Part shown: piece after piece, positions 34,178-55,002 of the stretch
How positions within the stretch are numbered: position 1 is the stretch's first letter
Layout of the letters: each line of letters begins with the position of its first letter
NCBI GenBank assembly: GCA_017464285.1
Contig: JAFUDT010000013.1
Coordinates: 379,175 to 443,174, forward strand
Direction: 5' to 3'
DNA length: 64,000 nucleotides
Source: Bacteroidales bacterium
Lineage (GTDB): Bacteria; Bacteroidota; Bacteroidia; Bacteroidales; UBA1402
Position numbers and translations under genes: made by a program
The notes under the pieces: generated by a model
Databases searched by the model: none
Told to the model about the DNA's origin: nothing
The model's input: the letters and a program-made list of their open reading frames with translations, nothing else

Positions 34178-34208
34178 GGAGCCGATTTCAGCGGCCGTCC
34201 GGCATGCC
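34178..34208 (+). repeat. Partial copy (F) of the hairpin-repeat family (3' arm plus start of tail)
   Basis: GGAGCCGATTTCAGCGGCCGTCCGGCATGCC aligns with copy B GAGCCCCGATTTCAGCAGCCGG(GATGGTT)CCCGGCATGCC. Confidence 0.7.
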
Positions 34209-34705
34209 TCAGACATTGCTGTTCCGCCCCCAGACCCCCAACCGCCGGCGCATCCGGGTGGAGTGGGGGGCTTTCGAAAGTACTTCTGAAAGTAGCGCCA
34301 CCGGTGGCAATCGGGGTTTCGGACAGCCGTGGCAGGAAGAAACCCTTCTCGATAGTGTACCCGTCCGATGAACTGTAGAGCGCAGGCCTGGCCTGTTTTA
34401 ATGGCTGATGTCAGCTAAGTGACGGATGGTTCTACGGCACACGCTTACGGAGCAGGCACCGAACCCTTAAATAATTCCCGCAAGAATGTTATTCCTGCTT
34501 GAATAATTGTCGGAATTCACTTATTTTTGTGTCGATTCATGCAGTGAAGATAAACGGCGAAAAAGCGTGTATTTATAATTGCACGTCTCAAGTATTGTTA
34601 CGAGTTGATTTTTTTTATTTGTGAAAGACAATGGAATGCTTTCGATGTAATCTTTCAGCAGATCGGTTTACAGCTACCCACTCTCGTTAAGTAATTTTAA
34701 GAAGG

Positions 34706-36790
34706 ATGAATCAATCTCAATACAACCAACTCTTCTCTTTTATCTGGAATATTGCAACAGATGTGCTAGTTTATGCCTTTGAGAAAGGTGAGTATAAGAA
34801 AATCATCATGCCGATGATGGTCTTGCGTCGTATCGACGTTCTTCTGGAACCAACAAAGGAACACTTGCTGGCTCAGAAGAAGATGTTGGATGATAACAAC
34901 ATCAATAACCAGGATCCTATTCTTTTTACGGTGACTGGTTATCCGTTCTACAACACTTCGCTTTTCACAATGAAGACGCTGAAAAGCGAAACTGACCCAT
35001 TACGCCTGAAGATGAACTTCACGGATTATCTCAATGGCTTTAGTAAGGATGTCCAGGATATTCTTGATAAGTTCCATCTAAGGCAGATGGTGGATAACCT
35101 TACTGAAGCAGAGCGTTTGGGTAGCATCATTGAGAAATTTACCGATGACAAAATAAACCTCTCGAACAAACCCGTGCTTAACGATGACGGAAACGTAAAA
35201 TTACCGGCCCTCGATAACCATACGATGGGCACGATGTTTGAGGAGTTGCTTCGTAAGTTCAATGAGGAGAACAACGTAACTGAAGCTGGTGAGCACTTCA
35301 CACCCCGTGATTATGTGAAACTACTTGCCGACCTCGCCGTGCTTCCTGTTGCTGACAAGATTACAGACAATACTTACAACATCTATGATGGCGCTTGTGG
35401 AACTGGAGGTATTCTCACGATTGCACAAGACAGTATTCAGGAGATTGCTGAAAAGCTTGATAAACGTGTTATTGTGAATATCTATGGGCAGGAGTTGCAA
35501 CCGGAAACGTATGCTACATGTAAGGCCGATTTGATGATATCTGGAAATATCAAGTCTTTCCAATATGCTTTTGGCACTCAACAGCGTGAATATATTGCTT
35601 TCGATAGCACCATTTCACGCGACGGCCACGCTGGAGAGAATTTTGATTTCTGCATCTCCAATCCACCATTCGGCACTCCATGGAAAGAGGATTTGAAGAA
35701 ACGGGGATTGGGTGAGAATGAAAAAAAGAAATTCACGGATAGTCGTTTCCAGCTGTTAGATAAAGATGGCAATGAAATTTCTTTCATCCCGGACATCGGT
35801 GACTGCCAGATGATGTTCCTTGCCAACAATCTGTCACGTATGCGTGACGATACGCCACTTGGCACTCGCATCGTTGAGGTACACAACGGCTCCAGCTTGT
35901 TTACGGGCGATGCCGGCAGCGGTGCCAGCAACTTACGCCAATACATCATTGAGAACGACTTGCTCGAAGCCATCGTTGCCATGCCAGAGAAAGACTTTTA
36001 CAACACAGGTATTGGCACTTTCGTATGGGTCATAACCAACCGCAAAGAAGACAGGCGAAAGGGCTTCGTGCAGCTCATAGATGCTACAGAGATAAAGACT
36101 CCGCTTCGCAAGAATCTTGGCGAGAAGAACTGTGAAACGGCAGAGGAAGACCGCAAAGCCATCCTTAAACTGCTGATGGACTTTGAGGAAACACCGCAAA
36201 GCAAGATATTTCCTAACAACGAGTTTGGCTATTGGAGCGTGAAGGTGTGTCGTCCGCTGCGACTGAAATCGCAGATTACGAACAATGGCATAGCCCTTTG
36301 CATCCAGGATAAAAAGTTCAAGGACATGCAAGACTGGCTTTCACGTCTATTTGAGGAAACCCAAGGCAAGGTATATCTTGACTTTAATTTGTTCATTAAA
36401 GAAGCTAAGGCTGCAACAAAGAAGCACGGCTTCAAATGGAAGAAATCTAATCGAGATGCCCTGCAGCGCTATTTCAGTGAGGTCTGCCCTGATGCCGAAA
36501 TTGTCGTCGATGATAACGGATGCCACGTACCCGACAAAGATCTAGAAGATTCTGAGATTATCCCGTTCCGTTATGAGAATGGCATCGAAGCCTTCCTTCA
36601 GAACGAGATACTTCCTTATACGCCTGATGCGTGGATTGACAAAGAAAGTATTCAGACGGGCTACGAACTTTCGTTCACCAAATACTTCTATAAGCCAAAG
36701 CAGCTGCGTACTATTGAAGAAATCAGCAAAGATATTCGTGGTATAGAGGAACGCACAGACGGATTGTTGAACGAAATCTTAGGAAAGTAA
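34706..36790 (+). CDS. hsdM: Type I restriction-modification system methyltransferase subunit
   Basis: 694 aa; AdoMet motif I YDGACGTGGIL, catalytic motif IV ISNPPFG; HsdM_N-like N-terminus; 1-nt gap to hsdS. Confidence 0.93.
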   Translation: MNQSQYNQLFSFIWNIATDVLVYAFEKGEYKKIIMPMMVLRRIDVLLEPTKEHLLAQKKMLDDNNINNQDPILFTVTGYPFYNTSLFTMKTLKSETDPLRLKMNFTDYLNGFSKDVQDILDKFHLRQMVDNLTEAERLGSIIEKFTDDKINLSNKPVLNDDGNVKLPALDNHTMGTMFEELLRKFNEENNVTEAGEHFTPRDYVKLLADLAVLPVADKITDNTYNIYDGACGTGGILTIAQDSIQEIAEKLDKRVIVNIYGQELQPETYATCKADLMISGNIKSFQYAFGTQQREYIAFDSTISRDGHAGENFDFCISNPPFGTPWKEDLKKRGLGENEKKKFTDSRFQLLDKDGNEISFIPDIGDCQMMFLANNLSRMRDDTPLGTRIVEVHNGSSLFTGDAGSGASNLRQYIIENDLLEAIVAMPEKDFYNTGIGTFVWVITNRKEDRRKGFVQLIDATEIKTPLRKNLGEKNCETAEEDRKAILKLLMDFEETPQSKIFPNNEFGYWSVKVCRPLRLKSQITNNGIALCIQDKKFKDMQDWLSRLFEETQGKVYLDFNLFIKEAKAATKKHGFKWKKSNRDALQRYFSEVCPDAEIVVDDNGCHVPDKDLEDSEIIPFRYENGIEAFLQNEILPYTPDAWIDKESIQTGYELSFTKYFYKPKQLRTIEEISKDIRGIEERTDGLLNEILGK

Positions 36791-36791
36791 T

Positions 36792-38054
36792 ATGGAGAGG
36801 TATAGTTCATATAAAGATAGTGGCATCTCGTGGATTGGTAAAATACCAGAGCATTGGGAGGTATGCAGAATGAAACGTGTTTTTTCGGAAGCAAAAGAAA
36901 AAACCACAACAGAAAGTGAAACACTTTTAAGTTTATCTCAATATACAGGAATCACGTTGAAAGATGATGCGAAAAAAGTTGGTATGTTTGAAGCCGAATC
37001 AACTATTGGGTATAATGTTGTTCATCCAGGTCAGTTTGTAATGAATATTATGTTGGCTTGGAATGGCAGCTATGCTGTATCTGATTATGAGGGTATTATT
37101 TCCCCATCTTATTGTGTCTTTAATTTCAATGAAGATTGCGAAAAGAAATACTTCCACTATCTTTTAAGGCTGCCAGCTTATGCGGGAGCTTTCAAAACTA
37201 TGTCAAAAGGCATAATTGAAAGCAGGCTTCGACTTTACCCAGTCTACTTTCTTGCTTTCAAAACCATAATTCCACCTCTCAACGAGCAACAATCCATTGT
37301 TGCCTACATCGAAGAAAAAACTTCCAAGATAGATGCTTATGTAGTAGACAAGGAGAAAGAGTTACGGCTGCTTAACGAGTTAAAAGAAACCGAAATTGCA
37401 AACGTCGTCACGCAAGGGCTTAACCATAATGTGAAGATGAAAGACTCCGGCATCCCTTGGATTGGGATGATACCTGAGCATTGGGAAATGGTTAAACTGA
37501 AAGTGTATTGTAAAGAGAATAAGGAAAAGAATAGGAATAATCAAGAGTCCACAGTTTTATCTTTAAGTTACGGTAATGTAATAGTTAAACAAGACTTGAA
37601 TGCAGGGCTTTTGCCAGAAAACTATGACTCCTATCAAATTGTCAACCCTGGGTATATAATACTTCGGCTCACTGATTTGCAAAACGATCACAAAAGTCTT
37701 AGGACTGGGTTAGTGAAAAATAGAGGAATAATAACCAATGCGTATGTAGGATTGATAGTAGAGAAAATAAATCCTGCTTATACAAGATTCCTTCTCCATT
37801 CTTATGACTTGAAAAAATTGTTTTACAGTATGGGCGGAGGATTACGTCAATCCATGAGTTACAAGGATGTAGCTAATCTTATGATTTGCGTTCCTCCTCT
37901 TAGCGAACAGCGTGCCATTGTTGAACATATCGAAAACAAGTGCAACAAAGTAAATTCTCTCATTTCCGAATTGGAAGCTGAAATAGAATATCTCAAAGAG
38001 TATAAACAACGTTTGATCGCTGACTGCGTGACAGGGCAAATCAACGTACAATAA
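36792..38054 (+). CDS. hsdS: Type I restriction-modification system specificity subunit
   Basis: 420 aa with two half-repeats (SGISWIGKIPEHWEVCRMKRVF / SGIPWIGMIPEHWEMVKLKVYC; ...PPLNEQQSIVAYIE / ...PPLSEQRAIVEHIE), as expected for two TRDs plus conserved spacers. Confidence 0.92.
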   Translation: MERYSSYKDSGISWIGKIPEHWEVCRMKRVFSEAKEKTTTESETLLSLSQYTGITLKDDAKKVGMFEAESTIGYNVVHPGQFVMNIMLAWNGSYAVSDYEGIISPSYCVFNFNEDCEKKYFHYLLRLPAYAGAFKTMSKGIIESRLRLYPVYFLAFKTIIPPLNEQQSIVAYIEEKTSKIDAYVVDKEKELRLLNELKETEIANVVTQGLNHNVKMKDSGIPWIGMIPEHWEMVKLKVYCKENKEKNRNNQESTVLSLSYGNVIVKQDLNAGLLPENYDSYQIVNPGYIILRLTDLQNDHKSLRTGLVKNRGIITNAYVGLIVEKINPAYTRFLLHSYDLKKLFYSMGGGLRQSMSYKDVANLMICVPPLSEQRAIVEHIENKCNKVNSLISELEAEIEYLKEYKQRLIADCVTGQINVQ

Positions 38055-38065
38055 AAGATTTTAAT

Positions 38066-38503
38066 ATGGACAAGAATTTTTGGAATACAGTTTTATCAAA
38101 CCTATCTTCGCCAGACAAAGTATCTGTGAGAAGGTATGAGGGTGATTATTATGGCATTTTCTCATCTGAAAATAGCAATGACACATACGACTGGTTCCAT
38201 GTGAATAGTCGTCAATTAGAATTAAATCTACAAGATAAAGGTTTTTCATGGTGTTATGTGATTGAAACTGCTCCTTCAGCAACACCTTTTATATATCTTT
38301 TTACGAGTCCCAATATGTCTAAGGACTTCATAAAGGACGAACTTAACTCATATATAGAAGAAATGCCAAAAGGTCGGCATGTCTATTTCGAGGATTGTTC
38401 TTTTTCTAATATAGACATTGACAAATACGATAACAGCATATCTGCATTGGAGAAGGAGCTATATCGCAAAGCAAGTGATGTCTTTAGAGTTTACAAAGTG
38501 TAG
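38066..38503 (+). CDS. Hypothetical 145-aa protein embedded between hsdS and hsdR
   Basis: ORF with 11-nt and 26-nt gaps to its neighbours and the same strand; no signal peptide or TM; no recognisable motif. Confidence 0.55.
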   Translation: MDKNFWNTVLSNLSSPDKVSVRRYEGDYYGIFSSENSNDTYDWFHVNSRQLELNLQDKGFSWCYVIETAPSATPFIYLFTSPNMSKDFIKDELNSYIEEMPKGRHVYFEDCSFSNIDIDKYDNSISALEKELYRKASDVFRVYKV

Positions 38504-38529
38504 AATCATATATAATATTAGAAATTTTT

Positions 38530-41493
38530 ATGCCTACAGATACCAGCGAAAAGAATCTTGAAACTATCCTTGTCAGTTATTTGTGCAACCAACACAAATA
38601 CGAGCAGGGCGTAAGTGAGAACTATAATAAAGACTACGCGCTCGACACTGAGCGTGTGAAGCGTTTCCTTCTCTCCACACAAAAGCTAAAGGTGGAGAAC
38701 ACCGCTTGTTTTGCAAGCGAGGTGTCTGAGCGCAAATTTTTCACTGAGCTAAATAAGCAACTGGCAACCAACGGTATAACACATATACTACGTAAAGGGT
38801 TCCGCTACATATCAGAGATATTCGATATGTATTATCCGCTTCCATCTGAGCTGAATCCTACTGCTAAGGAGCTGTATGGCAAAAATATATTCTGCGTCAC
38901 CCGGCAGCTATTCTACAGCAAAGAAAATAGCAACAGCATTGATGTGATGATTTCGCTAAATGGCTTGCCCGTCATGACATTGGAACTGAAAAACCACTAT
39001 ACCAATCAGACGATTGAGAATGCTGTTACCCAGTACCAAAACGACCGCGACCCGAAAGACCCCTTGCTGGCTCCCAAAAGGTGCGCCGTACATTTTGCCG
39101 TTGATGATGACGACATCAAAATGTGTACTTGGCTTTCAGGCAAATCATCGTGGTTCCTACCATTCAACAAAGGTGTAAATGGAGGAGCCGGAAATCCAAT
39201 CAATCCCAATGGGATGAGAACTGCCTATCTTTGGGAAGAAATCCTAAAGAAAGAATCTCTCTCTGACATTCTTGAAAACTACGCACAGGTAGTTGTCAAG
39301 AAAGTACGGGAGCGTGATAAGAACACGGGCAAATATAAGGAAGTTACAAAGACTTCTGTCGTATGGCCCCGCTATCACCAGTTAGATGCAGTTCGTAGTT
39401 TGCTGAAGGCAACGCGAGAAGGAGGCATCGGCCAGCGGTTCTTAATTCAACACTCAGCTGGCAGTGGTAAGTCTAATTCAATCACTTGGCTAGCCTATCA
39501 GCTTGTAGGGCTGCTGGATGGAACACAACCGCTGCTTGACAGCGTTATCGTAGTAACTGACCGTGTGAACCTTGACAATCAAATCAGGGACAACATTGCT
39601 GCATTTAAACGTCTGCAAAACCTTGTTGCTTGGGCGGACAGCGCAGACAGAAAAGATAGCAATACTTCATTGAAGAGCCTGCTGGAATCGGGGAAGAAAA
39701 TCATCATTACAATCGTACATAAATTCCCATATATTCTGGATGCAATCGGAAATGAACTAAAGAACAAACGCTTCGGCATTATCATAGATGAAGCGCATAG
39801 CAGCCAAAATGGTTCCTTGTCTGCTAAGATGAATATAGCCCTAAGTGGCAATGCTGGAGGCGACGAGATGGACTTGGAGGACCGGCTGAATCAAATTCTC
39901 GAGGGACGGAAGATGGTGAAGAATGCTAATTACTATGCATTTACTGCTACACCTAAAAATAAAACGCTGCAAATGTTCGGTCAGCCGTTTGATGCTCCAG
40001 AGGGTGAAATAGGTCACCGCCCATTCCATGAATACACCATGAAGCAAGCTATTGAAGAGGGCTTTATAATGGACGTATTGGAGAATTATACCACCTACAA
40101 TAGTTATTACAAGATAGTGAAAGCTATTGAGGAAGACCCGGAATTTGAAAAGAAACAGGCACAAAAGAAACTCCGTGCTTTTGTGGAAAGTCAGCCCGAG
40201 ACAATTCAGCAGAAAGCTTCTGTCATTGTTGAGCATTTCCATACTCAGGTTATTGGTAAAGGCAAGGTTGGAGGACAAGCTCGCGCTATGGTGGTGACAA
40301 GCAGCATCCTCCGCGCCATCGAGTTTTATTATGAGATAAAACGTCAACTGGAAGAACGCAAAAGTCCTTATAAGGCTATCGTCGCCTTCTCGGGTACTAA
40401 AGAGTATGGTGGGAAGCAGGTGTCTGAATCTGATGTAAACGGTTTCCCCTCTAAGGATATTGAGGATAATATGGAAATTGACCCATACCGCATTCTCGTT
40501 GTGGCCGATAAGTTCCAGACGGGTTATGACCAACCACTTCTTCATACTATGTACGTGGATAAGGTGCTTTCTGATGTCAAGGCTGTTCAGACGCTTTCGC
40601 GTCTTAATCGTTGCCATCCTAAGAAACGCGATACTTTTGTCCTGGACTTTGCAAATGATGCAGATGACATACAGAAAGCATTTCAGCGTTATTATAAGAC
40701 AACAATTCTTTCTAAGGAAACTGACCCGAATAAACTCAATGACCTTATTACGGAAATTGAACAGGCTAACATCTACACCGAAGACGATGTGCGTAATCTC
40801 AATGAAAAGTATTGGAGCGGCGCAGAGCGCAATGAGTTGGATCCAATAATCAATACTTCCGTTGACCGCTTCAAGACTTTGGATGAAAACGCTCAGATAC
40901 GCTGTAAGAGTAGCATCAAGTCTTTCCTGCGCATCTATCCGTTTATCGCTGCTGTTATGCCGTTCAAGAGTCAGGAGTGGGAAATGCTAAATACCTTCTT
41001 CATGTTACTTGTTCACAAGTTGCCTAAACTGAAAGGTGAAGATTTCACAGAAGGCTTGCTGGACGCAATAGACTTTGACCAATATCGGCTTGTTAAGGGT
41101 GAGGAACTGAAGATTGAATTAGAAAACAGAGATGAATCCATTGAGCCTATCCCTGTAGGACAACCTAAAGGAAAAGCTGAGCCGGAGATACAGAAGCTCA
41201 GTGACATCCTCGATGAGTTCAACGGCATCAATTGGCTGAACAAGGACAAAGCTAAACAGCAGTTAGAGGAACTGCCGACACGCCTTCAAGCGGATGAAGC
41301 ATTTGTCAATGCGGTGCGTAACAGCAACCGCCAGACGGCTATGCAACAATTCAGCCAATCTATGATGGCGATAGCTATTCAAATGCTGAATGAAAATACA
41401 GAGTTTACACGCAATTACCTTGACAATCCTGATTTTCAGAATTTCATTAACCAGCGCGTCTTCCAGAGCGCATATAATAGTGTAAGGAGATAA
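38530..41493 (+). CDS. hsdR: Type I restriction endonuclease subunit R (SF2 helicase/translocase)
   Basis: 987 aa; motif I HSAGSGKSNS, motif II IIIDEAHSSQ, motif III FTATP, motif VI QTLSRLNR; HsdR_N-type N-terminus. Confidence 0.94.
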   Translation: MPTDTSEKNLETILVSYLCNQHKYEQGVSENYNKDYALDTERVKRFLLSTQKLKVENTACFASEVSERKFFTELNKQLATNGITHILRKGFRYISEIFDMYYPLPSELNPTAKELYGKNIFCVTRQLFYSKENSNSIDVMISLNGLPVMTLELKNHYTNQTIENAVTQYQNDRDPKDPLLAPKRCAVHFAVDDDDIKMCTWLSGKSSWFLPFNKGVNGGAGNPINPNGMRTAYLWEEILKKESLSDILENYAQVVVKKVRERDKNTGKYKEVTKTSVVWPRYHQLDAVRSLLKATREGGIGQRFLIQHSAGSGKSNSITWLAYQLVGLLDGTQPLLDSVIVVTDRVNLDNQIRDNIAAFKRLQNLVAWADSADRKDSNTSLKSLLESGKKIIITIVHKFPYILDAIGNELKNKRFGIIIDEAHSSQNGSLSAKMNIALSGNAGGDEMDLEDRLNQILEGRKMVKNANYYAFTATPKNKTLQMFGQPFDAPEGEIGHRPFHEYTMKQAIEEGFIMDVLENYTTYNSYYKIVKAIEEDPEFEKKQAQKKLRAFVESQPETIQQKASVIVEHFHTQVIGKGKVGGQARAMVVTSSILRAIEFYYEIKRQLEERKSPYKAIVAFSGTKEYGGKQVSESDVNGFPSKDIEDNMEIDPYRILVVADKFQTGYDQPLLHTMYVDKVLSDVKAVQTLSRLNRCHPKKRDTFVLDFANDADDIQKAFQRYYKTTILSKETDPNKLNDLITEIEQANIYTEDDVRNLNEKYWSGAERNELDPIINTSVDRFKTLDENAQIRCKSSIKSFLRIYPFIAAVMPFKSQEWEMLNTFFMLLVHKLPKLKGEDFTEGLLDAIDFDQYRLVKGEELKIELENRDESIEPIPVGQPKGKAEPEIQKLSDILDEFNGINWLNKDKAKQQLEELPTRLQADEAFVNAVRNSNRQTAMQQFSQSMMAIAIQMLNENTEFTRNYLDNPDFQNFINQRVFQSAYNSVRR

Positions 41494-41494
41494 T

Positions 41495-43339
41495 ATGATA
41501 ACATCAAATAACGAATCTATATCTGACATCCTGAAGTCTATCGATGAGGGGAAAACGCAACTTCCCGACTTCCAGCGTGGCTGGGTGTGGGAAGATGGGC
41601 GTATTCGTGCGCTCATTGCAAGTATCAGTAATGGCTATCCTATCGGTGCTGCCATGTTCCTTCAGACTGGTGGTGAGGATATTCATTTCAAATACCGCCT
41701 CTTTGAGGGTGTGGATAAATCAAAAGAAAACGTGGAGCCTGAGCGTCTTGTCTTAGACGGACAGCAGCGCAATACTTCCATCTACCGCTCAATGTACTCC
41801 AAGAAGCCTGTTGAAACGGTGGATAGTAAGAAAAAGCCTATCAAGCGTTTCTATTATCTCAATATTCCGCTTTGTCTTGACACACTGATCGACCGCATAG
41901 ATGCGGTGGACTCTGTGCCGGAAGACAAAATCGTTCGAGAAAACATCGGCCGTGACATCAAACTCGATCTCTCGACACGCGAGAAGGAGTTTGAGGCACA
42001 TCGTTTTCCTTTGAACATCGTATTTGATTCACAGGAGATGATGAGATGGCAGCGGCAGTACACGCGTTATCACAATTCTGATGAGGTGGATGAAAACTGG
42101 GATAAATTCTACGACAATGTAATTGTCCCTATGGCCACTTATCAAATACCCGTTATTCAGGTTGGCAACGACGTTCCAAAAGAGGCCGTGTGCCAGGTAT
42201 TTGAGAATGTGAACCAAGGTGGGGTATCGCTGACTGTATTTGAACTTGTGACGGCTACTTTTGCTGCTGATAATTTTGAGCTTCGCAAAGATTGGGAACA
42301 GATATGGAAGGACTTACAACGACATCGCCAACTTTATCACAAAAAGTATCAGTCCTTCACTGGTACTGATTTCCTCACTGCGCTAACTTTGCTGGCTAGT
42401 TATGACAAGTTCAATTCTTCCAACGACAACAAGCCGAAGGCTGTATCGTGTAAGAAGAAGGATGTACTCCGTCTTACCTTCACCGACTATCAAACATATA
42501 GGGACAGGCTTTTATCTGGTTTGAATGAAGCGGTGAAGTTCTTGGAAGAGCAACGGGTATTTACCGCTATCGACATGCCTTATACAAGTCAGCTGATACC
42601 TCTTTCGGTTGCATTTGCCATCGACAAAAATCTTTGGTTTAACGCGGCCAACAGCCGGAAATTGGAACAGTGGTATTGGTGTGGCGTATTTGGTGAATTG
42701 TATGGCGGTGCCAATGAAACCCGCTATGTTACGGACATCACCGGCTTGATGGAATGGGCAAAGGATGATAATGCCGCGCCTGACACCGTGCGTCGTTCTA
42801 ACTTCCACGCTTCCCGTTTGGGTCAGTTATACACACGTAATAGTGCTGCATACAAGGGTATCATGGCACTTATCATGAAAGCGCAGGCCCGCGATTTCAT
42901 CAAAGGGTCGCAGATGGACTTCGCTTCATATGTTGGTGAAGCAACCGACATTCACCACATATTCCCTCAGCATTATTGCGAAGGACAGCACATTGATCGT
43001 GCTTTATGGAATTCTGTCATCAATAAGACACCCATCTATGCCAGGACGAACCGCATTATCGGTGGCAACGCTCCCAGTAAATACCTTTCAAGCATTGAGC
43101 GAAATCACGGTGTAGAGCCTGAAAAGCTTGATGAATATCTTGCTTCTCATATGATTGATGTGGAAGCCATTCGTACCGATGACTTCGATACCTATTTTGA
43201 CAAGCGTAAAAATGCACTTCTTGACCTCGTCGAACAGGCTACAGGCAAACCAGTAGCCGGACGCGACGAACAAGAAGCAGAAGAGCCTTCTTCTTATGAT
43301 TTGGCAGAAATGAATGAAATCGAGTGGGACGTGGAATAA
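41495..43339 (+). CDS. DUF262 (ParB-like NTPase) + C-terminal His-Me/DUF1524-like nuclease protein, GmrSD/SspE/BrxU-type
   Basis: 614 aa; LPDFQRGWVW and LDGQQR DUF262 signatures; C-terminal DIHHIFPQHY...NSVINKTP...RTN; starts 1 nt after the hsdR stop. Confidence 0.85.
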   Translation: MITSNNESISDILKSIDEGKTQLPDFQRGWVWEDGRIRALIASISNGYPIGAAMFLQTGGEDIHFKYRLFEGVDKSKENVEPERLVLDGQQRNTSIYRSMYSKKPVETVDSKKKPIKRFYYLNIPLCLDTLIDRIDAVDSVPEDKIVRENIGRDIKLDLSTREKEFEAHRFPLNIVFDSQEMMRWQRQYTRYHNSDEVDENWDKFYDNVIVPMATYQIPVIQVGNDVPKEAVCQVFENVNQGGVSLTVFELVTATFAADNFELRKDWEQIWKDLQRHRQLYHKKYQSFTGTDFLTALTLLASYDKFNSSNDNKPKAVSCKKKDVLRLTFTDYQTYRDRLLSGLNEAVKFLEEQRVFTAIDMPYTSQLIPLSVAFAIDKNLWFNAANSRKLEQWYWCGVFGELYGGANETRYVTDITGLMEWAKDDNAAPDTVRRSNFHASRLGQLYTRNSAAYKGIMALIMKAQARDFIKGSQMDFASYVGEATDIHHIFPQHYCEGQHIDRALWNSVINKTPIYARTNRIIGGNAPSKYLSSIERNHGVEPEKLDEYLASHMIDVEAIRTDDFDTYFDKRKNALLDLVEQATGKPVAGRDEQEAEEPSSYDLAEMNEIEWDVE

Positions 43340-43438
43340 AAGATCCTTAATTATTGCGCTAAACTGGTACTGTCACTCACCGTTTCCGATCACAGTGACA
43401 TTGCTTGGTGCCGTAAGTGCGTGATAATTATCGAAAAA

Positions 43439-44560
43439 CTATCTTCGTGTTAGTTGACCGATTAATTTTTCGGCATATTCTTTGCTTAAATGATGATTGA
43501 CTAAAAACTTGAGAATTAGTTTTTGGTCTTCAACCGCTTCGGCGGTCCTGATAAATGTCGGCTGGTTAATGCTGATAAAGGAAGAGAGCCTACCGTCTGT
43601 CATCTTTTGAATAGCTCGTTTGATTTCTCTCATGGACTCGGTGTCTCGAGTAAAGATTGTGATATCCTTTTTCTCTGTGTTAACGTAATCTGACTGTTTC
43701 AAGAAGAACGGCGCAAAATATTGACGGTCGTTCTCGCCAAGAGAGTGACCAAAGATCACAACTTCATCGGCCTCTCTGAGCTTTGTGACGATATCTGATG
43801 GGTTAAACGAATCGTCCATCGCCTTCTGAAGAAAGTCATAGCTCTCAGCTATTGTTTGGTCATCTCGTGTTCCAATAATTATTTTGCCGTCCTCACAAGA
43901 ACCATGTACGTATTTGATGTGAATGTCGTCAAGATTGTGATTGGGCCACCAGGGATGAGTGTAATTGAAGGTGAAGGCGTCAACAAAGGCGCCAGCTTCT
44001 TGTGTCTTTATAATCGCATGGAGTATCTGATAAGATACTTTTTTCTCGGAAATTGGCATTTTGATGGATCCCAAATAACTACAGAGTTTATCTTTGATAA
44101 GGTCTAGCGCTTTCTTGTCGCGCCAGATGGGAGATTGAAGTGCGTCGTCTTTATAGTGCTCATGGACCTCTCTATATATTCCATAATCGGTTGCGGAAAG
44201 GACCCCTTTATTGATGAGAGATTCTATCAGATTCCATTGGTTGTCATACCAACCATTTATGTATCCATAAGATGTGAATTTTTCAAGAAAGTGTCTCTCT
44301 TCTTCTGTGATAATATCCTTGGCTTTCGTTGGGTCCTTAACGATCTCATAATAATAATCTAGTAGTCCGTTTTCCAGGTCATACCATCTTACACTCTCAA
44401 GGTTGTTTGGCCAATGCTGATTCAAGTAATGGATGAGTGGAGCTGGATAATCCTTAGGGCAATAGTCTGACTCCCAAAAGTCTTTGTAGGACGTTTTGAA
44501 GCCAAGGTCAAGGTCGAATCCGTTACCTAGGATAAGCACTATTTTGCGCGGCTCAGTCAT
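43439..44560 (-). CDS. AbiH-family abortive-infection protein
   Basis: 373 aa; N-terminal IVLILGNGFDLDLGFKTSYKDFW matches the AbiH hallmark (GNGFDL..G.KTSY.DF). Confidence 0.7.
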   Translation of the reverse strand: MTEPRKIVLILGNGFDLDLGFKTSYKDFWESDYCPKDYPAPLIHYLNQHWPNNLESVRWYDLENGLLDYYYEIVKDPTKAKDIITEEERHFLEKFTSYGYINGWYDNQWNLIESLINKGVLSATDYGIYREVHEHYKDDALQSPIWRDKKALDLIKDKLCSYLGSIKMPISEKKVSYQILHAIIKTQEAGAFVDAFTFNYTHPWWPNHNLDDIHIKYVHGSCEDGKIIIGTRDDQTIAESYDFLQKAMDDSFNPSDIVTKLREADEVVIFGHSLGENDRQYFAPFFLKQSDYVNTEKKDITIFTRDTESMREIKRAIQKMTDGRLSSFISINQPTFIRTAEAVEDQKLILKFLVNHHLSKEYAEKLIGQLTRR

Positions 44561-44735
44561 GCATCTAATTATTTTCGATTACGAATCAACACTCTATTCT
44601 GATTAATGAGGTCCTTGGCCTCAAATGTACTAACATTGATTTATCCCTGCAAAGAAATAACGCGACTTTCTGCTGGTTTGTTTGCGAAAGTTCTTCCTGG
44701 CTATTATTTTTGTCCGTTGACAAAGTCTAAGAACG

Positions 44736-45173
44736 ATGAAGAAGTTATTCTACCTATTGCTGCTTCCTTTGCTATGTGTTTCATGTGAGGAACTTGAAGA
44801 GCCCGAACCAGATCCTGCCGATGCGTTTGTGGGGCGGTATGAATACTTTACTACGATGTTCGCCACATATGGAAGCGCATCCCAAACGGGAATGTTAGAA
44901 GGCGAATTCTCTATTGTTAAGTTATCCAGAGATCGTGTGAGAATGACTGGCGATTGGTCTTCGATTGGAGAAGTGTATGGTAATACTGTTAGCTTTTCCG
45001 ATGATTATCAGTCGGATGCCAGTGGCTATTTGACTTTTAAATTTGGAGCGGCTTCTTTTAGCGGCGGTCTGCTTTACTTTAACTATACAGCTTCGGGACG
45101 CTTAAAATACACCGATGGCGTGGCATACCCATTCACTTGCAATGGCAGCGTAACTGCACATAGAATTGATTGA
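44736..45173 (+). CDS. Small lipoprotein of unknown function
   Basis: 145 aa; lipobox LLLPLLCVSCEE; beta-rich; stop lies 6 nt before the next ORF. Confidence 0.6.
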   Translation: MKKLFYLLLLPLLCVSCEELEEPEPDPADAFVGRYEYFTTMFATYGSASQTGMLEGEFSIVKLSRDRVRMTGDWSSIGEVYGNTVSFSDDYQSDASGYLTFKFGAASFSGGLLYFNYTASGRLKYTDGVAYPFTCNGSVTAHRID

Positions 45174-45179
45174 ACTGTT

Positions 45180-48100
45180 ATGAGCACTAGTGAAACAGGA
45201 TTGTATAATAAAATAATGACATCAACTGTATCGACATACTACACGAATAAGATCCTGAGTATCATTGATGAGTACTCAAGTAGAAATGATTTTACGATAT
45301 TTGTTTTTCTTGGTGTTACAGAATGTATAGATACTCGGGCGATTATAGGAAACATTCTTGACCAAAAAACTTTTTATCTGGATGGAGGTGAACAGATATT
45401 TGATAAAGCCTGGAGGAGAGATGCGGTTAAACAAATCATAAACAGCGATAAACCTTTTGTCATACTTTCATACCAACAGTTTTGCTACTTGGAACAAAAC
45501 TTGGGTAAAGACTTTTTGGAAAACGTGGTCATTATTCAGGATAACCTCCGATCATTGTATCAAATCTCACCGCATCTTTATATTCGTCCCAATATACACG
45601 AAAAAGAGGCTGATCTTGAAGAGAGACCTGATAAACTCCCTGTATATCAAGCAGAGCAGTTCGTGTTTGACAACAAGTATTTCTATAGCGTCGATATACC
45701 AAGTGATCCTAATTACATAATAGTCCCCCTTTTTACTGAAAGAAAGCAGATTAACGTGGATCTGAAACACCCCTCTAATCGGGTTAAATTAATTGATCTC
45801 AAGGGTGATAGTTATGCACTAGATATTATTCTGAATGAATGTGTCAGAGGAGATTTCCTATATGAACAGATTGTAATCAAAACATATAAAAAAAATCCTC
45901 TCACAGGTCTATATAGACAACGCATCGAATGTATTAATGCTTTCCTAAATAGACTTGGGCATTCAATATCTGAATACCAAGAAACGCTTGATAAAGAGGA
46001 ATGTCACATTAGTAAAGAAACTATCTCATTGTTGCACGAATATTGGGGCAATGACGCTTCATTCAGAGATATTGAAGTTTATTCTAATCCTGATGAGGGC
46101 AAGACTCTTGTGAAAATATCTCAGGGGCAGATAGTTCAGACAATCATTAAAGAGTATAAGAATAGTCGTTCTGGAACAGAAGTTCGAGATTTATTACTTA
46201 CTGCACCCACGGGAGCTGGTAAATCACTGATTTTTCAGTTGCCAGCATTTCACATCGCAAAAAAAGGAGATGTCACTATTATCGTTTCTCCTCTTATAGC
46301 TTTGATGAAGGATCAAGTAGATGCAATAAAGGCACGTGGATTTGCCCGTGTCGAATATATAAATAGTCTATTAAACTATATAGATAGAGATCGCATTATA
46401 AAAGAATGTCAGGCGGGTCATGTCGATATTCTGTACATGTCACCGGAATTGCTTCTGTCATACCACATTTCTCATTTTATAGGTGATCGTTCAATAGGGT
46501 TAATGGTTATTGATGAGGCTCATCTGATTACAACATGGGGACGCGATTTTAGGGTAGATTATTGGTATATGGGCGAGCATCTGAGAAAGATAAGAAAAAA
46601 CTTACCCTATTCATTTCCCATAATTGCAGTTACTGCTACTGCAATATATGGCGGTGATAATGATATGGTTTTTGACACGATAGATAGTCTTCACATGCAA
46701 AGGCCTCACCTGTTCATAGGAAAAATTAGGCGAGAAGACATTCTATTTGCTATTAACAACTATGATTCACCAAAGTCTCAGTATTACTCGTTCAAATTAG
46801 CTCAGACAGCTGCTTTTATTTCAAAAATGGTTGAATTGGGGGCTAAAACAATTGTTTATACCCCATACAAAAGACACATTGGAGATATATTGTCAAAAAT
46901 TTGTACCCCTGAAGAAAAAGAGAAAATAGCCATTTACAAAAGTGACCTGGACTCGTATATCAAGGAAGAGTCAATGAATTTGTATAAATCGGGAGAGAAA
47001 ACGATTATGCTTTGTACCAAAGCATTTGGGATGGGTGTTGACATTCCTGATATCCAAGTTGTCTATCATCATGCGCCCTCAGGTCTTTTACCCGACTACA
47101 TCCAGGAAATAGGAAGGGTGGCCAGAGATCCCAAGGTGATAGGTATCGCAGCAATTGAGTACTCAGAAAAAGATCAAATATATAGCAAAGCGCTCCATGG
47201 CTTATCTTCTATCAAACCTTTTCAAATTCAGTATATTTTGAAAAAGCTGTATTCTCTCTATTTGAAGAATGAGAAAAAAAGGAATATGGTTGTCTCAACA
47301 GACGATTTTCAATATATTTTCCCAAAATCCAACGCGGAAGAGGTGAGCCAAAAAGTTCAAACCGGCTTGATGATGATTGAAAAAGACTACTTGGCGAAGT
47401 ATCGTTTCAATGTCGTCATTGCAAGACCAAAGCAATTATTTGTCAAAGCATATGCGAGAACTAATGAATTTGGCTACAACTTTTTGATGATGAATTACAA
47501 AAACTGTATTGATAGTGTTGTGAAAGAAGAAAATGGGCATTACTGGATGTTATTAGACTTGGATAAGGTGTGGAAGAAGAACTTCGTTGATATTACATTT
47601 CCACTACTAAAAAAACGTTTTTATGACCAAGAACTTTTTTCTGATAAAAATCTTCTGTTGGTGCCAGAAGTAAGATTTGATTTTGAATTTACTTCTGATT
47701 TCACAAAGAGCTATGCATATATCAGTGATATATTAGAGGCTACTTCAGGATACTTTAGCATTTCTCTCACCTCTTTCAAAGAAGTCGATCTTGAAAATCA
47801 ACTAGTTAAATCTATACCTGATGGTCGAAAAAGAGAGCAGTATGTAAGATTCATTTTGACCACATACTCTGATATTGGTAATAAAGAAACCGATTCATTT
47901 CTTCAGGCTAGAAGGAATGGACATGGTCAGTTCTTCTTTGTGAAGAATAACAATTATGAAAAGAAGTTCTCGAATCTCAAGAGACTCTTTTATGAGTTGT
48001 TTGGTAATGGGCAACAAAAGGTTACACGTTACCGACAATACGGGGGGACGAGGGCCTTGGATTTGTATAGACTTGGAGGACTGTTTGATTTGTTTGACCT

Positions 48101-48908
48101 TGGTACTTTCGGATGCAGAGGAGGAGAGAATCCTATGATATTTGTCCGTATAAATGATCCCGAAAAAGTAAGACGAGACTCCGAAAATATGAAATACGAG
48201 AATTTAATCCTCAAAAGGACTTTAAACAAGAACAAGATCAGTTCGGAGCTCTTTGATTATTTTTTTATGAATGACTTTGATGATAAAAAACGTTGGTCAT
48301 TTATCGAGGATTTTTTTCTGGGAATGGATAACGACGATCTGTTTACTAGATATCCTGCAACATCACTGTGTCACACGAACATAATTCAATACATTGAAGA
48401 TCATATACAATCAACAGAAACCCTGTCTGTTGCGCCAAAGAAAACGACGTCAGAGGGACAATCAGTATCCTTTGCTCCTATCGCTGGCACTTTTTATTCA
48501 GATGATAGACAACTCACAATAAACGGAGTGACCAAAACTATAAGTAGGTGGATAATAGACAGCCCGGTAGAACTAAATAAAACGATAACCAACTATTCGA
48601 TAAAGATTGGTAAAAACAGTCGATCAGTACTAATTTCCAAGTTGATGAATAATCACAAGGAATACTATCGAGAATTCATTGGATTAAATGCTCTAATAGA
48701 TTTTCCGGGGTACGAAGGGCCTGTGAAGGCAAGCATTCCATTTCAATATGAGCCGTTACAGTTTTATCGCTGGTGGCAGAAGAATGAAGATGTAGTTTAC
48801 CTAAGTAAGTCAAATCAAATAAAGTTATTCCTCACAGTCGTAGACCAAGGAGAAACATTATTAAAAAGGCATAGTCAAGTCCTTTTGATGAGTAAAAAGA
48901 GATTATAA
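45180..48908 (+). CDS. 1242-aa protein with a central RecQ-like SF2 helicase core and unassigned N- and C-terminal regions
   Basis: Motifs TAPTGAGKS (I, ~46206), IVSPLIALMKDQ (Ia), VIDEAHLITTWGRDFR (II), IAVTATA (III), LCTKAFGMGVDIPD (V), QEIGRVARD (VI). The ~290 aa upstream and ~580 aa downstream have no motif I recognise. Confidence 0.8.
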   Translation: MSTSETGLYNKIMTSTVSTYYTNKILSIIDEYSSRNDFTIFVFLGVTECIDTRAIIGNILDQKTFYLDGGEQIFDKAWRRDAVKQIINSDKPFVILSYQQFCYLEQNLGKDFLENVVIIQDNLRSLYQISPHLYIRPNIHEKEADLEERPDKLPVYQAEQFVFDNKYFYSVDIPSDPNYIIVPLFTERKQINVDLKHPSNRVKLIDLKGDSYALDIILNECVRGDFLYEQIVIKTYKKNPLTGLYRQRIECINAFLNRLGHSISEYQETLDKEECHISKETISLLHEYWGNDASFRDIEVYSNPDEGKTLVKISQGQIVQTIIKEYKNSRSGTEVRDLLLTAPTGAGKSLIFQLPAFHIAKKGDVTIIVSPLIALMKDQVDAIKARGFARVEYINSLLNYIDRDRIIKECQAGHVDILYMSPELLLSYHISHFIGDRSIGLMVIDEAHLITTWGRDFRVDYWYMGEHLRKIRKNLPYSFPIIAVTATAIYGGDNDMVFDTIDSLHMQRPHLFIGKIRREDILFAINNYDSPKSQYYSFKLAQTAAFISKMVELGAKTIVYTPYKRHIGDILSKICTPEEKEKIAIYKSDLDSYIKEESMNLYKSGEKTIMLCTKAFGMGVDIPDIQVVYHHAPSGLLPDYIQEIGRVARDPKVIGIAAIEYSEKDQIYSKALHGLSSIKPFQIQYILKKLYSLYLKNEKKRNMVVSTDDFQYIFPKSNAEEVSQKVQTGLMMIEKDYLAKYRFNVVIARPKQLFVKAYARTNEFGYNFLMMNYKNCIDSVVKEENGHYWMLLDLDKVWKKNFVDITFPLLKKRFYDQELFSDKNLLLVPEVRFDFEFTSDFTKSYAYISDILEATSGYFSISLTSFKEVDLENQLVKSIPDGRKREQYVRFILTTYSDIGNKETDSFLQARRNGHGQFFFVKNNNYEKKFSNLKRLFYELFGNGQQKVTRYRQYGGTRALDLYRLGGLFDLFDLGTFGCRGGENPMIFVRINDPEKVRRDSENMKYENLILKRTLNKNKISSELFDYFFMNDFDDKKRWSFIEDFFLGMDNDDLFTRYPATSLCHTNIIQYIEDHIQSTETLSVAPKKTTSEGQSVSFAPIAGTFYSDDRQLTINGVTKTISRWIIDSPVELNKTITNYSIKIGKNSRSVLISKLMNNHKEYYREFIGLNALIDFPGYEGPVKASIPFQYEPLQFYRWWQKNEDVVYLSKSNQIKLFLTVVDQGETLLKRHSQVLLMSKKRL

Positions 48909-49357
48909 TGTGACAATGTGTGAGTATAGCGTTAATAAGATACCGAGTGTAGCGCACTAGATGGTACTGCCATGACGCGCAAATGGGTACCGACTTGGAT
49001 GCTTGATGGCTTGCAGGATTTCAAAGAGTCTTATATCTTTGACCTAAAATATTTGGTCAAGAGTAGAAATATTTTCGGTGTCTGCCGGCTGTTGTTCTTC
49101 AACAGGACTGATTGTGGTACTACCGTCCACAGACCATTTATTTTATGGTACTACCAATCGAGTTGTTGGATGTGGGAGTAAAGTCAGCACTTGTTGTATG
49201 CGTTGCTCCACTCAAACCCTCCAGCAGCTCGATTTCTATTACTCCGTAGCTATTTGCTTTTGATTCTGCATTCGTGAATTCTAATTAGAAGTGCAACACA
49301 CTTCAAAAGTCAAAGTTGAACGGAGATTTGTGTTTCAGAGTAGAAATCAGCACGAGG

Positions 49358-49503
49358 GCTTCGCCGCGGTATAGATTGGGGGTTTGGTGGCGAGGCACTG
49401 TTTTGTCCTGTGCCGAGCGGCAAACCACAAATCTCAGCGGCAAGCCCGAACCAATCGGAAGGCCCAATCCCGGCGTTGCGTTGCAGTTGTTGCAGTTGTT
49501 TCC
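49358..49503 (+). repeat. Hairpin-repeat family, full copy A (hairpin 49358-49445 + tail)
   Basis: Contains TGGTGGCGAGGCACTGTTTTGTCCTGTGCCGAGCG and tail GTTGCGTTGCAGTTGTTGCAGTTG; abuts the umuC stop codon. Confidence 0.9.
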
Positions 49504-49508
49504 CCCTC

Positions 49509-50804
49509 CTATCGCAATCTGATGATGTCGGACCAGCGAGTGGTGGGATTCTTGCTGCGGAAATCGTGCTTGATGGCATTGGCAAAGACTTCGGCCTTGC
49601 CCCGCCCGTCTTTTAAGGTATATTGCTGAGCCCCGACGACCACCGTCTCCGAACCATGCAGGCGGTTGATACGGTCGACCACCTCGTCGAGCCGCCGCAT
49701 CTTCTGAATCTGCTCGGCACTCAAGTCGAACAAATCTGTCTGCACAGGACTGTCGGGATCGATGTTCATGACAATGACACCGGCCTTCTTGTAGCGATAG
49801 CCCTCGACAAAAATACGGTCGAGCACTTCGAGCGCCGCCCGCACCACCAGCGTGGTCGAAGATGTTGGAGTGAGAAGGCTCGTCTCCTGGAAATTCCAGT
49901 ATTGCGCCAAATCTTCGCGAAAAGCATTGGTATGGACAAATACCCCCACCGTCGAGGCCACACTCTGCTGCATGCGCAGCTTCTCGGCACAACGAGCCGC
50001 ATAGTTGGCCACATGAGTGCGAAGGGCCTCCTTGTCGGCTATCATGCCCTGAAACGAACGGCTGGTGCAGATGCTTTTCTTGCGGGCCAGCTCCTCGTTG
50101 GGCACCACATCCTCGCCGTTGAGCTCCTGCCAAGTACGCAGCATGTTGATGTTGTTAAAGGTAAGCTGCACCCAGTCACGGTGGTGGCTGGCCAGATCGA
50201 GCGCCGAGTGGCAGCCCAGCGCCTTGAGCTTGGCCGCATAGCGCCGACCGATGCCCCAGACATCTTCGATGGGACACCACGCAAGGGCCCTCTGGCGCTT
50301 GTAGTCGTTGTCGATGATGCAGCAATGCTTGTAGGCGGCATATTTCTTGGCCAGCTTGGAGGCGATCTTGGCCAGCGTCTTGTTGGGCGCCAGGCCGATG
50401 CTGATGGGCAGGCCCACCTCGCGCCTGACCCGCCGGTGGAGATGCTCGCCCCACTGCTGGAGCCTGTCGGGAGCTATGCCATCGAGATACATGAAGCACT
50501 CGTCGATCGAGTAGCGGAAATAGGCGGGCGCCTCCTGGCGGATGATACTCACCACACGCCCCGTGAGCTCGCCGTAGAGCTCGTAGTTGGAAGAGAAGAC
50601 GGCGATCTTCTGCCCGGGAAACTGCTGCGCCAGCCGGAAATAGGGCGTGCCCTCCTGGATGCCCATCTTCTTGGCCTCGTTGCTGCGGGCCACCACGCAG
50701 CCGTCGTTGTTGGACAGCACGACTATGGGTCTTCCCTCCAGATCGGGGCGGAACACCTTCTCTCACGAGCAGTAGCAATTGTCAAGGTCGGCGATGCCGT
50801 ACAT
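49509..50804 (-). pseudogene. umuC: Y-family DNA polymerase V subunit UmuC, interrupted by an in-frame TGA at codon 14
   Basis: Minus strand reads ATG TAC GGC ATC GCC GAC CTT GAC AAT TGC TAC TGC TCG TGA GAG AAG GTG TTC CGC = [21 protein letters not shown]..., then 415 uninterrupted codons ([14 protein letters not shown]...[11 protein letters not shown]). TGA at 50765-50763. Confidence 0.8.
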
Positions 50805-50806
50805 GG

Positions 50807-51244
50807 TCAGAACTTCTCGAAGGTGCGGATGAGGTGGATGACGGTGCCCCAGATCTGGAAATTCTCGGGGTCCTTGATCTTGAAGACCGGGTAGTCGGGA
50901 TTGGCCGGGCGTAGCTCGATGTAGCCTTCCTTGCGATGGGTCAGGTCGAGATACTTCATGGTGAAGCCGCCGTCCCACCAGGCCACTACGATCGAGCCGT
51001 CGTGGGGCTCCACGGCTCTGTCGATGATGACGCGGTCGCCGTCGAACAGGCCGGCATCTTTCATGGAGTCGCCTTCGACATAGCCGTAGAACGAGGCTTC
51101 GGGATGCCGGATAAAGTCGCGGTTGAAGTCGAGCGTGTCGTGTATGTAGTCGTCGGCCGGGCTGGGAAATCCGGCGGTCACCCCGGCATTGACCAACTCA
51201 AGCCGGGTGTCGAACTCTCCTCTCACTATCTTGATATTGCTCAT
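50807..51244 (-). CDS. umuD: SOS-response translesion subunit UmuD (LexA-like S24 peptidase)
   Basis: 145 aa; cleavage-site-like AG, Ser GDSM, Lys ...FTMKYL...; its stop lies 2 nt before the umuC ATG. Confidence 0.88.
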   Translation of the reverse strand: MSNIKIVRGEFDTRLELVNAGVTAGFPSPADDYIHDTLDFNRDFIRHPEASFYGYVEGDSMKDAGLFDGDRVIIDRAVEPHDGSIVVAWWDGGFTMKYLDLTHRKEGYIELRPANPDYPVFKIKDPENFQIWGTVIHLIRTFEKF

Positions 51245-51316
51245 AACTCGAATCTGCTGATACTAATCTTCCTTAAGAACGAAGGTAAGCGAATTTTATG
51301 AAACGGCAAAAAAATC

Positions 51317-51462
51317 GGCAGTCTTCCGGCTGCGGTACAAATCGGGCGCTCTGGTGGCGAGGCACTGTTTTGTCCTGTGCCGGGCGCCAGAGCCCCGATT
51401 TCAGCAGCCGGGATGGTTCCCGGCATGCCGGTGTTGCGTTGCAGTTGTTGCAGTTGGTTTGG
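51317..51462 (+). repeat. Hairpin-repeat family, full copy B (hairpin 51326-51411 + tail)
   Basis: CCGGCTGCGGTACAAATCGGGCGCTCTGGTGGCGAGGCAC-TGTTTTGTCCT-GTGCCGGGCGCCAGAGCCCCGATTTCAGCAGCCGG, then ...GTTGCGTTGCAGTTGTTGCAGTTGG. Confidence 0.92.
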
Positions 51463-51524
51463 AGTAGGATTTTGTGTTGCTAAGTCGAAGGGGTTTTCGT
51501 AGTTTTGCAGAAAGCTCATGAAAA

Positions 51525-52514: not shown

Positions 52515-52540
52515 AATAAACGTTTGTGGATTGCCTGGCT

Positions 52541-52600
52541 CCCGGAGCGTTGCGACGGTAGTTGTTGCAGTTGGTTTGGGGATTTCGGCAGCCGCAGTGG
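52541..52600 (+). repeat. Hairpin-repeat family, partial copy C (tail-like segment + 3'-arm end)
   Basis: CCCGGAGCGTTGCGACGGTAGTTGTTGCAGTTGGTTTGG followed by GATTTCGGCAGCCGCAGTG. Confidence 0.75.
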
Positions 52601-52836
52601 TTATCAGTTAACAATTGCTCAGTGCATACAGAGGGACGATGTCCACGTGTCTTTGCTCGAAATTGTCCTTGGGGTCGTAGTGGTCAAACTGACCGATTGC
52701 CTTGCGGGTGCGAAGTTATAAATAGTTTCCAAAAGTCGGGGCAAAAAACATGGGAAATTATCCAAAATACAGCCCAAAACCAAAAGTCGGGGCAAAAAAG
52801 GAGTCCGTTTATCTAAAAGGAAGGGCGAAAACAGAC

Positions 52837-52887: not shown

Positions 52888-52983
52888 TTCTTCGATGCCG
52901 TTCGACGTTTTTCGGGGTAAGAAGCCAAAATGTTTGTTATACTAAACATTTATGCTTATATTTGCGCCCAATAAGATACAATT

Positions 52984-54991: not shown

Positions 54992-55002
54992 TTACCTCTG
55001 TT

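Follow-up and report, generated by a model that had tools for sequence, protein, structure and literature searches.

A low-GC defence island without mobility genes in a ruminant-gut Bacteroidales genome, likely built by successive acquisition of separate defence genes

Homologues of the GmrSD restriction system are found most often in type I restriction-modification (RM) loci (PMC4619093). In the VPI-2 island of Vibrio cholerae, a type I RM cluster harbours a GmrSD-type system that protected, in experiments, against phages whose DNA carries hypermodified cytosines (PMC11411939). Escherichia coli and Pseudomonas aeruginosa have also been described to possess defence hotspots in which no mobile element is detectable (PMC10121019, PMC10250203). 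Here, we analyzed a region of low guanine-plus-cytosine (GC) content at positions 34467–49300 of a 64,000-nucleotide (nt) stretch of DNA from an uncultured Bacteroidales bacterium. The whole stretch, hereafter the window, corresponds to G000:C10:379175-443174, where G, C and L numbers denote genomes, contigs and collected loci or contigs, respectively (G007 and G002 are sister species). G000 is a metagenome-assembled genome (MAG) of 2.37 Mb in 20 contigs, 83.5% complete, and C10 is a contig of 512 kb. The low-GC region, referred to below as the island, carries a type I RM operon, a GmrSD-like gene, an AbiH-family gene and a RecQ-like helicase gene, and lies between susC on the left and umuC on the right, with flanks that were assigned by Pfam to SusC/SusD and UmuC/UmuD.

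The island resembles the hsd-tgvAB locus of V. cholerae VPI-2, the Campylobacter 'Rlo' genes and the E. coli immigration control region, in which an hsdM/S/R operon likewise has extra genes within it or directly after it. In those systems, DUF262 and His-Me nuclease genes are co-transcribed with the restriction genes, and unmodified and modified DNA are targeted in a complementary manner (PMC11411939, PMC4619093). In contrast with them, the island has a single fused GmrSD-type gene after hsdR instead of between hsdS and hsdR, and its hsdS–hsdR slot holds an unrelated gene of 145 amino acids (aa). With its stacked defence systems between chromosomal genes, its lack of a mobility gene and its foreign-looking, variable content, the island also recalls E. 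coli hotspot #37 and the core defence hotspots of P. aeruginosa (PMC10121019, PMC10250203); those, however, have conserved core flanks and many alternative cargos, whereas neither a second occupant nor an empty site was found here. The island is a fairly ordinary example, as the stacking of RM, type IV and Abi systems in AT-rich regions without mobility genes is already well described. Less ordinary are the exchange of the GmrSD gene among four restriction contexts with the precision of an open reading frame (ORF), the 145-aa gene in the hsdS–hsdR slot, and the helicase family.

We consider it likely that this is a chromosomal defence island without self-mobility, which grew as separate defence genes were acquired horizontally, one after another, from a gut and rumen gene pool. 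Within 15 kb it unites a type I RM system, a GmrSD-like gene, an AbiH gene and a candidate defence helicase, in keeping with a defence island in the sense of Makarova (at least three adjacent systems, variable, of atypical composition). Searches with Pfam, PADLOC and NCBIfam recovered the gene content listed in an earlier note on this DNA (hereafter, the original prediction), namely hsdM-hsdS-orf145-hsdR-DUF262, a convergent AbiH gene, and a lipoprotein gene with a giant RecQ-like gene. The features of the island are as follows (window positions):

34467–34705, + strand: AT-rich region upstream of hsdM, left edge of the low-GC DNA
34706–36790, + strand: hsdM, type I RM methyltransferase (Pfam N6_Mtase 3.5e-40, HsdM_N; PADLOC MTase_I 4e-223)
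36792–38054, + strand: hsdS, specificity subunit (Pfam Methylase_S, two stretches; PADLOC Specificity_I 1.6e-99, full length)
38066–38503, + strand: orf145a, 145 aa, between hsdS and hsdR
38530–41493, + strand: hsdR, type I restriction subunit (Pfam HSDR_N, SWI2_SNF2, ResIII, T1R_D3-like; PADLOC REase_I 8e-39)
41495–43339, + strand: gene for a GmrSD-like type IV (modification-dependent) nuclease, 614 aa (Pfam GmrSD_N 2.5e-28; PADLOC HEC-05 2e-21)
43439–44560, − strand: AbiH-family gene, convergent with the RM operon (Pfam AbiH PF14253)
44736–45173, + strand: orf145b, small predicted lipoprotein, 145 aa (signal and lipobox read by eye)
45180–48908, + strand: RecQ-like helicase, 1242 aa (Pfam DEAD, Helicase_C; PADLOC C3a193 4e-159, DpdF, PsyrT)

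The base composition of the island departed strongly from its surroundings. GC content was 57.6% over positions 1–34466, 40.9% in the island (range 33–48% across 500-nt windows) and 57.7% over umuDC (49301–51500), and then ran at ~46% to the window end. By segment, it was 40.4% for hsdM to orf145a, 44.6% for hsdR and the GmrSD-like gene, 41.4% for AbiH, and 37.0% for the lipoprotein and helicase genes. The genome as a whole has 53.75% GC, and its 2130 windows of 14.8 kb gave a mean of 53.9% with a standard deviation of 3.0, which places the island at z = -4.3. Only 0.28% of these windows were equally low, all in one other region on contig C7, and the island is the second most AT-rich 15-kb stretch of the assembly. 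The original prediction had described a fall from ~60% to ~37-38%; the fall is real, but the figures were rounded, and ~37% holds only for the lipoprotein and helicase segment. Its view of the region as a compositionally foreign stack of immunity modules is borne out by both the family matches and the atypical GC content.

The type I RM operon is, judged from its sequence, complete. HsdM has an NPPF motif at residue 319 and matched N6_Mtase and HsdM_N above the Pfam cut-offs; HsdS has two target-recognition domains and an internal repeat (D1); and HsdR has an N-terminal nuclease domain and GSGKS and DEAH motifs, with HSDR_N, SWI2_SNF2 and ResIII above cut-off, although its 200 bits against the NCBIfam hsdR model fell under the cut-off of 284.55. 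The product of orf145a found no match in Pfam, PADLOC, NCBIfam or PHROGs. Differing lengths of hsdS and orf145a in the gene tables of another assembly raised hsdS phase variation as a candidate, which was rejected; the DNA is identical in both assemblies, so the difference is one of gene calling only.

The GmrSD-like gene starts 1 nt past the hsdR stop. Its product matched GmrSD_N (DUF262/GmrS) with 100 bits against a cut-off of 33.2 and carries a DFQRG motif and DGQQR at residue 88. HEC-05, the PADLOC model that it matched, is the BrxU-like group, and a weak PDB match to BrxU (7P9K) covered the N-terminus only. Towards the C-terminus, a DIHHIFPQ...N...N block at residues 485–535 (HH..N..N at 487), found by eye and by pattern, resembles the His-Me finger of GmrD. 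The AbiH-family protein scored 90.6 bits against PF14253 over residues 8–285 (cut-off 30.9) and matched prophage family phrog_26443 over its full length (5.6e-88); 844 homologues were found at E <= 1e-20.

Divergently from AbiH run the lipoprotein gene orf145b and the helicase gene, the latter beginning six nt past the former. The orf145b product opens with MKKLFYLLLLPLLCVSC, followed by an acidic stretch, and had no family match in Pfam, PADLOC, NCBIfam or PHROGs. In the helicase, a RecQ-like superfamily 2 (SF2) core occupies residues 334–692. The protein falls outside the RecQ family proper, with 170.8 bits for TIGR00614 against a cut-off of 219.8 and 211 against 640 for the recQ equivalog. 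It shares its SF2 RecQ-type core with DpdF of the Dpd system and with PsyrT/RqlH of PsyrTA (PADLOC DpdF 7e-68, PsyrT 4e-52, residues ~334–690). These matches cover the core only, though; the island helicase has twice the length, its own conserved N- and C-terminal regions gave no PDB fold match, and neither Dpd or PsyrA partner genes nor a conserved neighbour lie near it. In line with this, PDB sequence matches were confined to the core and ended at ~residue 665, good to fair AlphaFold models of residues 1–335 (mean predicted local distance difference test score, pLDDT, 85) and 690–1242 (pLDDT 73.5) retrieved no PDB fold at E < 0.05, and the C-terminal model matched neither RQC nor HRDC.

Full-length helicase homologues of 1220–1240 aa, with 44–49% identity, occur in Flavobacterium, Marinilabilia, Riemerella, Spirosomataceae and Limnohabitans. 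They lie in defence islands with Eco57I-like enzymes, DarT, McrBC, Schlafen/AlbA_2 genes, ParDE and integrases, and no conserved partner gene was found beside them; orf145b is not a conserved neighbour either. Since the homologues occupy defence islands without a conserved neighbour, we regard the helicase as a probable additional defence candidate that stands alone, and the lipoprotein as probably unrelated cargo.

From what is known of the families, a layered immunity can be proposed. An HsdM2-HsdS-HsdR2 complex would methylate the host's own sites and cut unmethylated incoming DNA, and the GmrSD-like enzyme, probably translationally coupled to hsdR, would attack DNA with modified bases that escapes ordinary restriction. 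AbiH would serve as an abortive-infection backstop, and the RecQ-like helicase would probably act on its own. Most likely, a mobile element or some other foreign DNA would have brought the genes in, host recombination would have incorporated them, and any mobility genes would have been lost.

The island DNA was absent from nine congeneric species and 31 further genomes of the family and order, where the only matches were paralogues with 66–68% identity. The same interval in all related genomes, which would have spoken against accessory DNA, was therefore not seen. Related contigs came from ruminant and other gut metagenomes, and comparison of the island DNA with phage and plasmid collections returned nothing useful. 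The pieces of the island differed greatly in the identity of their nearest relatives: 98.3% (DNA) for the GmrSD-like gene, ~90% (DNA) for hsdM and hsdR, 66% (aa) for AbiH and 49% (aa) for the helicase, so that no close source was found for the last two. When proteins were clustered at 90% identity, SusC, UmuC, HsdM, AbiH and the helicase were singletons, HsdR had 16 cluster-mates and the GmrSD-like protein 67. Since both the nearest-relative identities and the contexts differ, we infer that at least four pieces, which differ in origin and age, make up the island. This is at odds with the single low-GC Bacteroidales donor of the original prediction.

The RM operon illustrates how sharply such a piece can be bounded. 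Loci L124-127 carry hsdM-hsdS-orf145-hsdR with ~90% DNA identity to window positions 34706–36803 and 37891–41494 (hsdM 90.1% and hsdR 90.3% in L124), and the homology to L124 starts exactly at the hsdM ATG (34706) and stops at the hsdR stop codon. The gap at 36803–37891 corresponds to the hsdS recognition domains, which are unlike those of L124; differing recognition domains are usual among type I systems. L124-127 likewise have a 145-aa gene in the hsdS–hsdR slot, in surroundings of ~90% DNA identity. The window's orf145a was absent from 43 other hsdMSR loci, in which the hsdS–hsdR spacing varies by up to ~2 kb. The donor contigs shared nothing else with this genome than umuC at 69.6% identity and are therefore taken to belong to other organisms. 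More widely, relatives of the hsdMSR operon extended over several phyla, occurring at 74–88% aa identity in MAGs of Prevotella, Alistipes, Coprobacter, Phocaeicola and Bacteroidaceae and also of Clostridia, Anaerovoracaceae and Flexilinea, and at 57–59% in Fibrobacter MAGs. None of the other island genes stood beside them in the loci examined.

The GmrSD-like gene has travelled separately. In L128-130, it is present with 98.3% DNA identity (window 41490–43335) within a relaxase-bearing element, where it comes after a type III-like restriction gene; with ~82% identity it follows a different hsdR family in L184-188 and, in L189-192, is enclosed by a type I locus that has an hsdS inversion shufflon. 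In each context compared, homology was confined to the ORF +/- ~16 nt. The last three hsdR codons and stop read GTA AGG AGA TAA in the window vs ATA ACT AGG TAA in L124, and the 3' end of the window's hsdR matches the ribosome-binding leader that accompanies the GmrSD gene elsewhere. At the sequence level, the last three hsdR codons and stop thus lie in a leader that travels with the GmrSD gene, and the island was assembled by swaps of whole genes or operons, with breakpoints at or within ~15 nt of start or stop codons.

Given that the same GmrSD gene, at 82–98% DNA identity, sits in four unrelated RM contexts and that its insertion here rewrote the last three hsdR codons, a dedicated docking mechanism that exchanges single defence cassettes (ribosome-binding site plus ORF) at the 3' ends of restriction genes in gut Bacteroidales may be envisaged. 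We hold such a mechanism to be improbable; ordinary illegitimate recombination filtered by selection is more likely. The locus provides a record, at base-pair resolution, of how an uncultured ruminant-gut Bacteroidales bacterium built its predicted layered immunity from circulating parts; one GmrSD-type gene passes with hardly a change between type I and type III restriction loci in different organisms. Two candidate new defence functions also emerge: orf145a within the RM operon and the widespread family of 1220–1240-aa RecQ-like helicases in defence islands of several phyla.

As to mobility, the original prediction had seen no integrase, transposase or tRNA at the edges and, hairpin-repeat copies apart, no obvious direct repeats, and our searches of the window and of contig C10 agree with it. 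The sole tRNA in the window is a tRNA-Lys at 12512, so none lies at the island edges; no direct repeats were found to flank the island, and no Rfam family was matched in window positions 33000–56500. None of the four families searched for contig-wide (Phage_integrase, rve, DDE_Tnp_1 and Resolvase) was present on C10. In a six-frame search of the whole genome, all hits to tyrosine recombinases, rve and DDE_Tnp_1 fell on contigs other than C10, and no serine recombinase was found anywhere. Further, no recombinase, transposase or relaxase was listed in the precomputed Pfam tables for window positions 20844–56402, the sole check made for other transposase families and relaxases. With no recombinase of the four families on C10, no att direct repeats and no tRNA at its edges, the island does not classify as an integrative and conjugative element, an integrative and mobilizable element or an integrative island.

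Several points weigh against a stack of separately acquired defence genes without self-mobility. The contig-wide search for mobility genes took in only the four families named above. All contigs with an identical SusC were 100% identical clones and no conspecific strain lacking the island was found, so that its accessory status rests on other species and on composition. As regards the genes, Pfam DUF1524 was not matched at E <= 0.01 at the C-terminus of the GmrSD-like protein, the PADLOC AbiH model barely matched (E = 7e-5 over 22 residues), and no effector domain was identified in the helicase.

The junctions and the DNA to the right of the island bear on the alternative explanations and contain the following features:

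34178–34466, no strand assigned: GC-rich non-coding block of 289 nt at the left junction
49274–49352, + strand: non-coding motif of 79 nt at the right edge, with a 96%-identical counterpart in sister species G007
49363–49501, + strand: hairpin repeat A, before umuC
49509–51244, − strand: umuC and umuD, a host-like islet of 57.7% GC in the right flank (Pfam IMS, IMS_C, Peptidase_S24)
51319–51459, + strand: hairpin repeat B, between umuD and RhuM-Fic
51319–54660 including repeats, + strand: accessory cargo right of umuDC (Pfam), namely RhuM-Fic 51525–52514, a helix-turn-helix (HTH) gene 52984–53283 and HipA 53280–54530
52839–52900, + strand: hairpin repeat C, partial, before the HTH-HipA pair
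54568–54660, + strand: hairpin repeat D, after HipA

The island could be what is left, after decay, of a single larger element, integrative or mobilisable, that spans ~34.4–56.4 kb or more and includes umuDC, RhuM-Fic, HipBA and the hairpins, with its integrase and transfer genes lost or located elsewhere. In accordance with this, the ~90%-identical RM operon of L124-127 also adjoins a umuDC operon, the GmrSD relative of L128 lies within a relaxase-bearing element, toxin-antitoxin-like cargo of 46–50% GC continues to the right of umuDC, and at 56402 the window and a second assembly of this strain part ways. However, umuDC itself has host-like composition, its umuC is only 69.6% identical to that of L124 and stands on the opposite side of the RM operon, and a UmuD with >90% identity sits among housekeeping genes elsewhere. 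The range of nearest-relative identities given above (98%, 90%, 66% and 49%) argues against a single arrival, and neither terminal repeats nor, on C10, a recombinase of the four families was found. We therefore regard a single larger element as unlikely. The position of UmuD among housekeeping genes also led us to reject umuDC as a general defence anchor.

A further alternative is a hotspot where cargo is exchanged through homologous recombination, either between the hairpin repeats or between conserved flanking genes, and the original prediction had favoured entry by recombination at a repeat-marked hotspot. The hairpin repeat is an imperfect hairpin of ~100–140 nt, and its four copies in the assembly (A–D), all on the + strand and all right of the island, separate umuDC, RhuM-Fic and HTH-HipA like cassette dividers (49363–54660). 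A copy on G007 contig C62 stands at a transition from low to high GC. At the left junction, the first ~30 nt of the GC-rich block match the 3' arm of the repeat. The original prediction had counted this match as a copy (F) paired with A on the right; A is a genuine copy, but F is no more than this partial match, and full copies do not bracket the island. Further, the repeat is scattered in the sister species G007 and G002, where it adjoins glutamate dehydrogenase, cation-efflux, permease, esterase and phosphoesterase genes of normal GC content. Since it lies dispersed beside housekeeping genes there, it behaves as a repetitive extragenic palindromic (REP)-type element and not as an island-specific site or attC. 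The repeats were thus rejected as attC-like or island-specific sites, having no Rfam match either, and without intI or copies inside the island the locus does not correspond to an integron or to a cluster of attC sites lacking an integrase (CALIN).

The flanking genes gave a similar picture. The susC–umuC adjacency was not conserved in any relative examined, so no hotspot is definable: the nearest congeneric SusC is a paralogue of 52% aa identity without synteny, and the metagenome SusCD orthologues (69–78% aa) have unrelated neighbours and no umuDC within 10 kb. No empty site or alternative cargo was found among congeneric genomes or metagenome SusCD orthologue loci, as the gene order near susCD has not been preserved even among the closest relatives. 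Comparison of the susC-to-umuC interval across relatives thus yielded neither a second occupant nor an empty site. Taken with the lack of positive evidence for repeat-mediated entry, this makes cargo exchange at a hotspot quite improbable.

An artefact, either a chimeric MAG contig or mis-binned foreign DNA, is extremely implausible. The genome is a MAG of the stated completeness and another assembly departs from the window at 56402, but independent assemblies reproduce both junctions, which makes an assembly chimera very unlikely. At the left, an ENA contig and Logan contigs from three runs show 100% identity across the junction; at the right, an ENA contig of 557 kb has the identical junction.

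Beyond the successive acquisitions that we favour as the origin of the island, some minor observations were made at its edges. Apart from its opening, the left GC-rich block had no other full copy in the genome and no homology in the collected loci. On the right, the 365 non-coding nt after the helicase gene (48909–49273) hold three copies of TGGTACTRCC, without an ORF or homology to the collected loci. The adjacent 79-nt motif matched L111 (G007:C62) at 3315–3393, with a partial copy in the own genome at C13:342612-342651, and is 96% conserved in G007, whose genes are otherwise <70% identical. It was considered as an element end and rejected, as its other copies, which neighbour AAA_14/DUF4143 ATPase genes, show no consistent orientation.

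In the right flank, umuC has an in-frame stop at codon 14 (50754–50804, − strand; MYGIADLDNCYCS*EKVF...) through which homologues read and which is identical in the ENA contig; the remaining 415 codons and umuD are intact. umuC may be a pseudogene or may carry a recent nonsense mutation. At 90% identity, UmuD (50807–51244) falls in a cluster of 1320 and RhuM-Fic (51525–52514) in one of 622, some of them named Prevotella sp.; with the UmuC singleton beside the large UmuD cluster, conservation is uneven across the stretch from umuDC to RhuM-Fic. Further to the right, the ENA contig of the same strain is 100% identical to the window up to 55876, has 20 mismatches in 55877–56305 and is fully divergent beyond 56402, where it carries HigB/HTH, YccF and a peptidase and the window instead has a porin-pst operon. 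Either this is a structural variant or one of the assemblies was mis-joined at a repeated gene.

Elsewhere, in the metagenome contigs L189-192, a small tyrosine recombinase separates two opposed hsdS genes, as is typical of an hsdS inversion shufflon, and NERD, a large helicase and DarT come next. In the genome studied here, C7:~47000-62000 is the only region more AT-rich than the island (~40% GC over 15 kb), and C7:61722-61850 is 76% identical to part of hsdS; being AT-rich and having hsdS-like sequence, the C7 region is probably a second RM or defence island.

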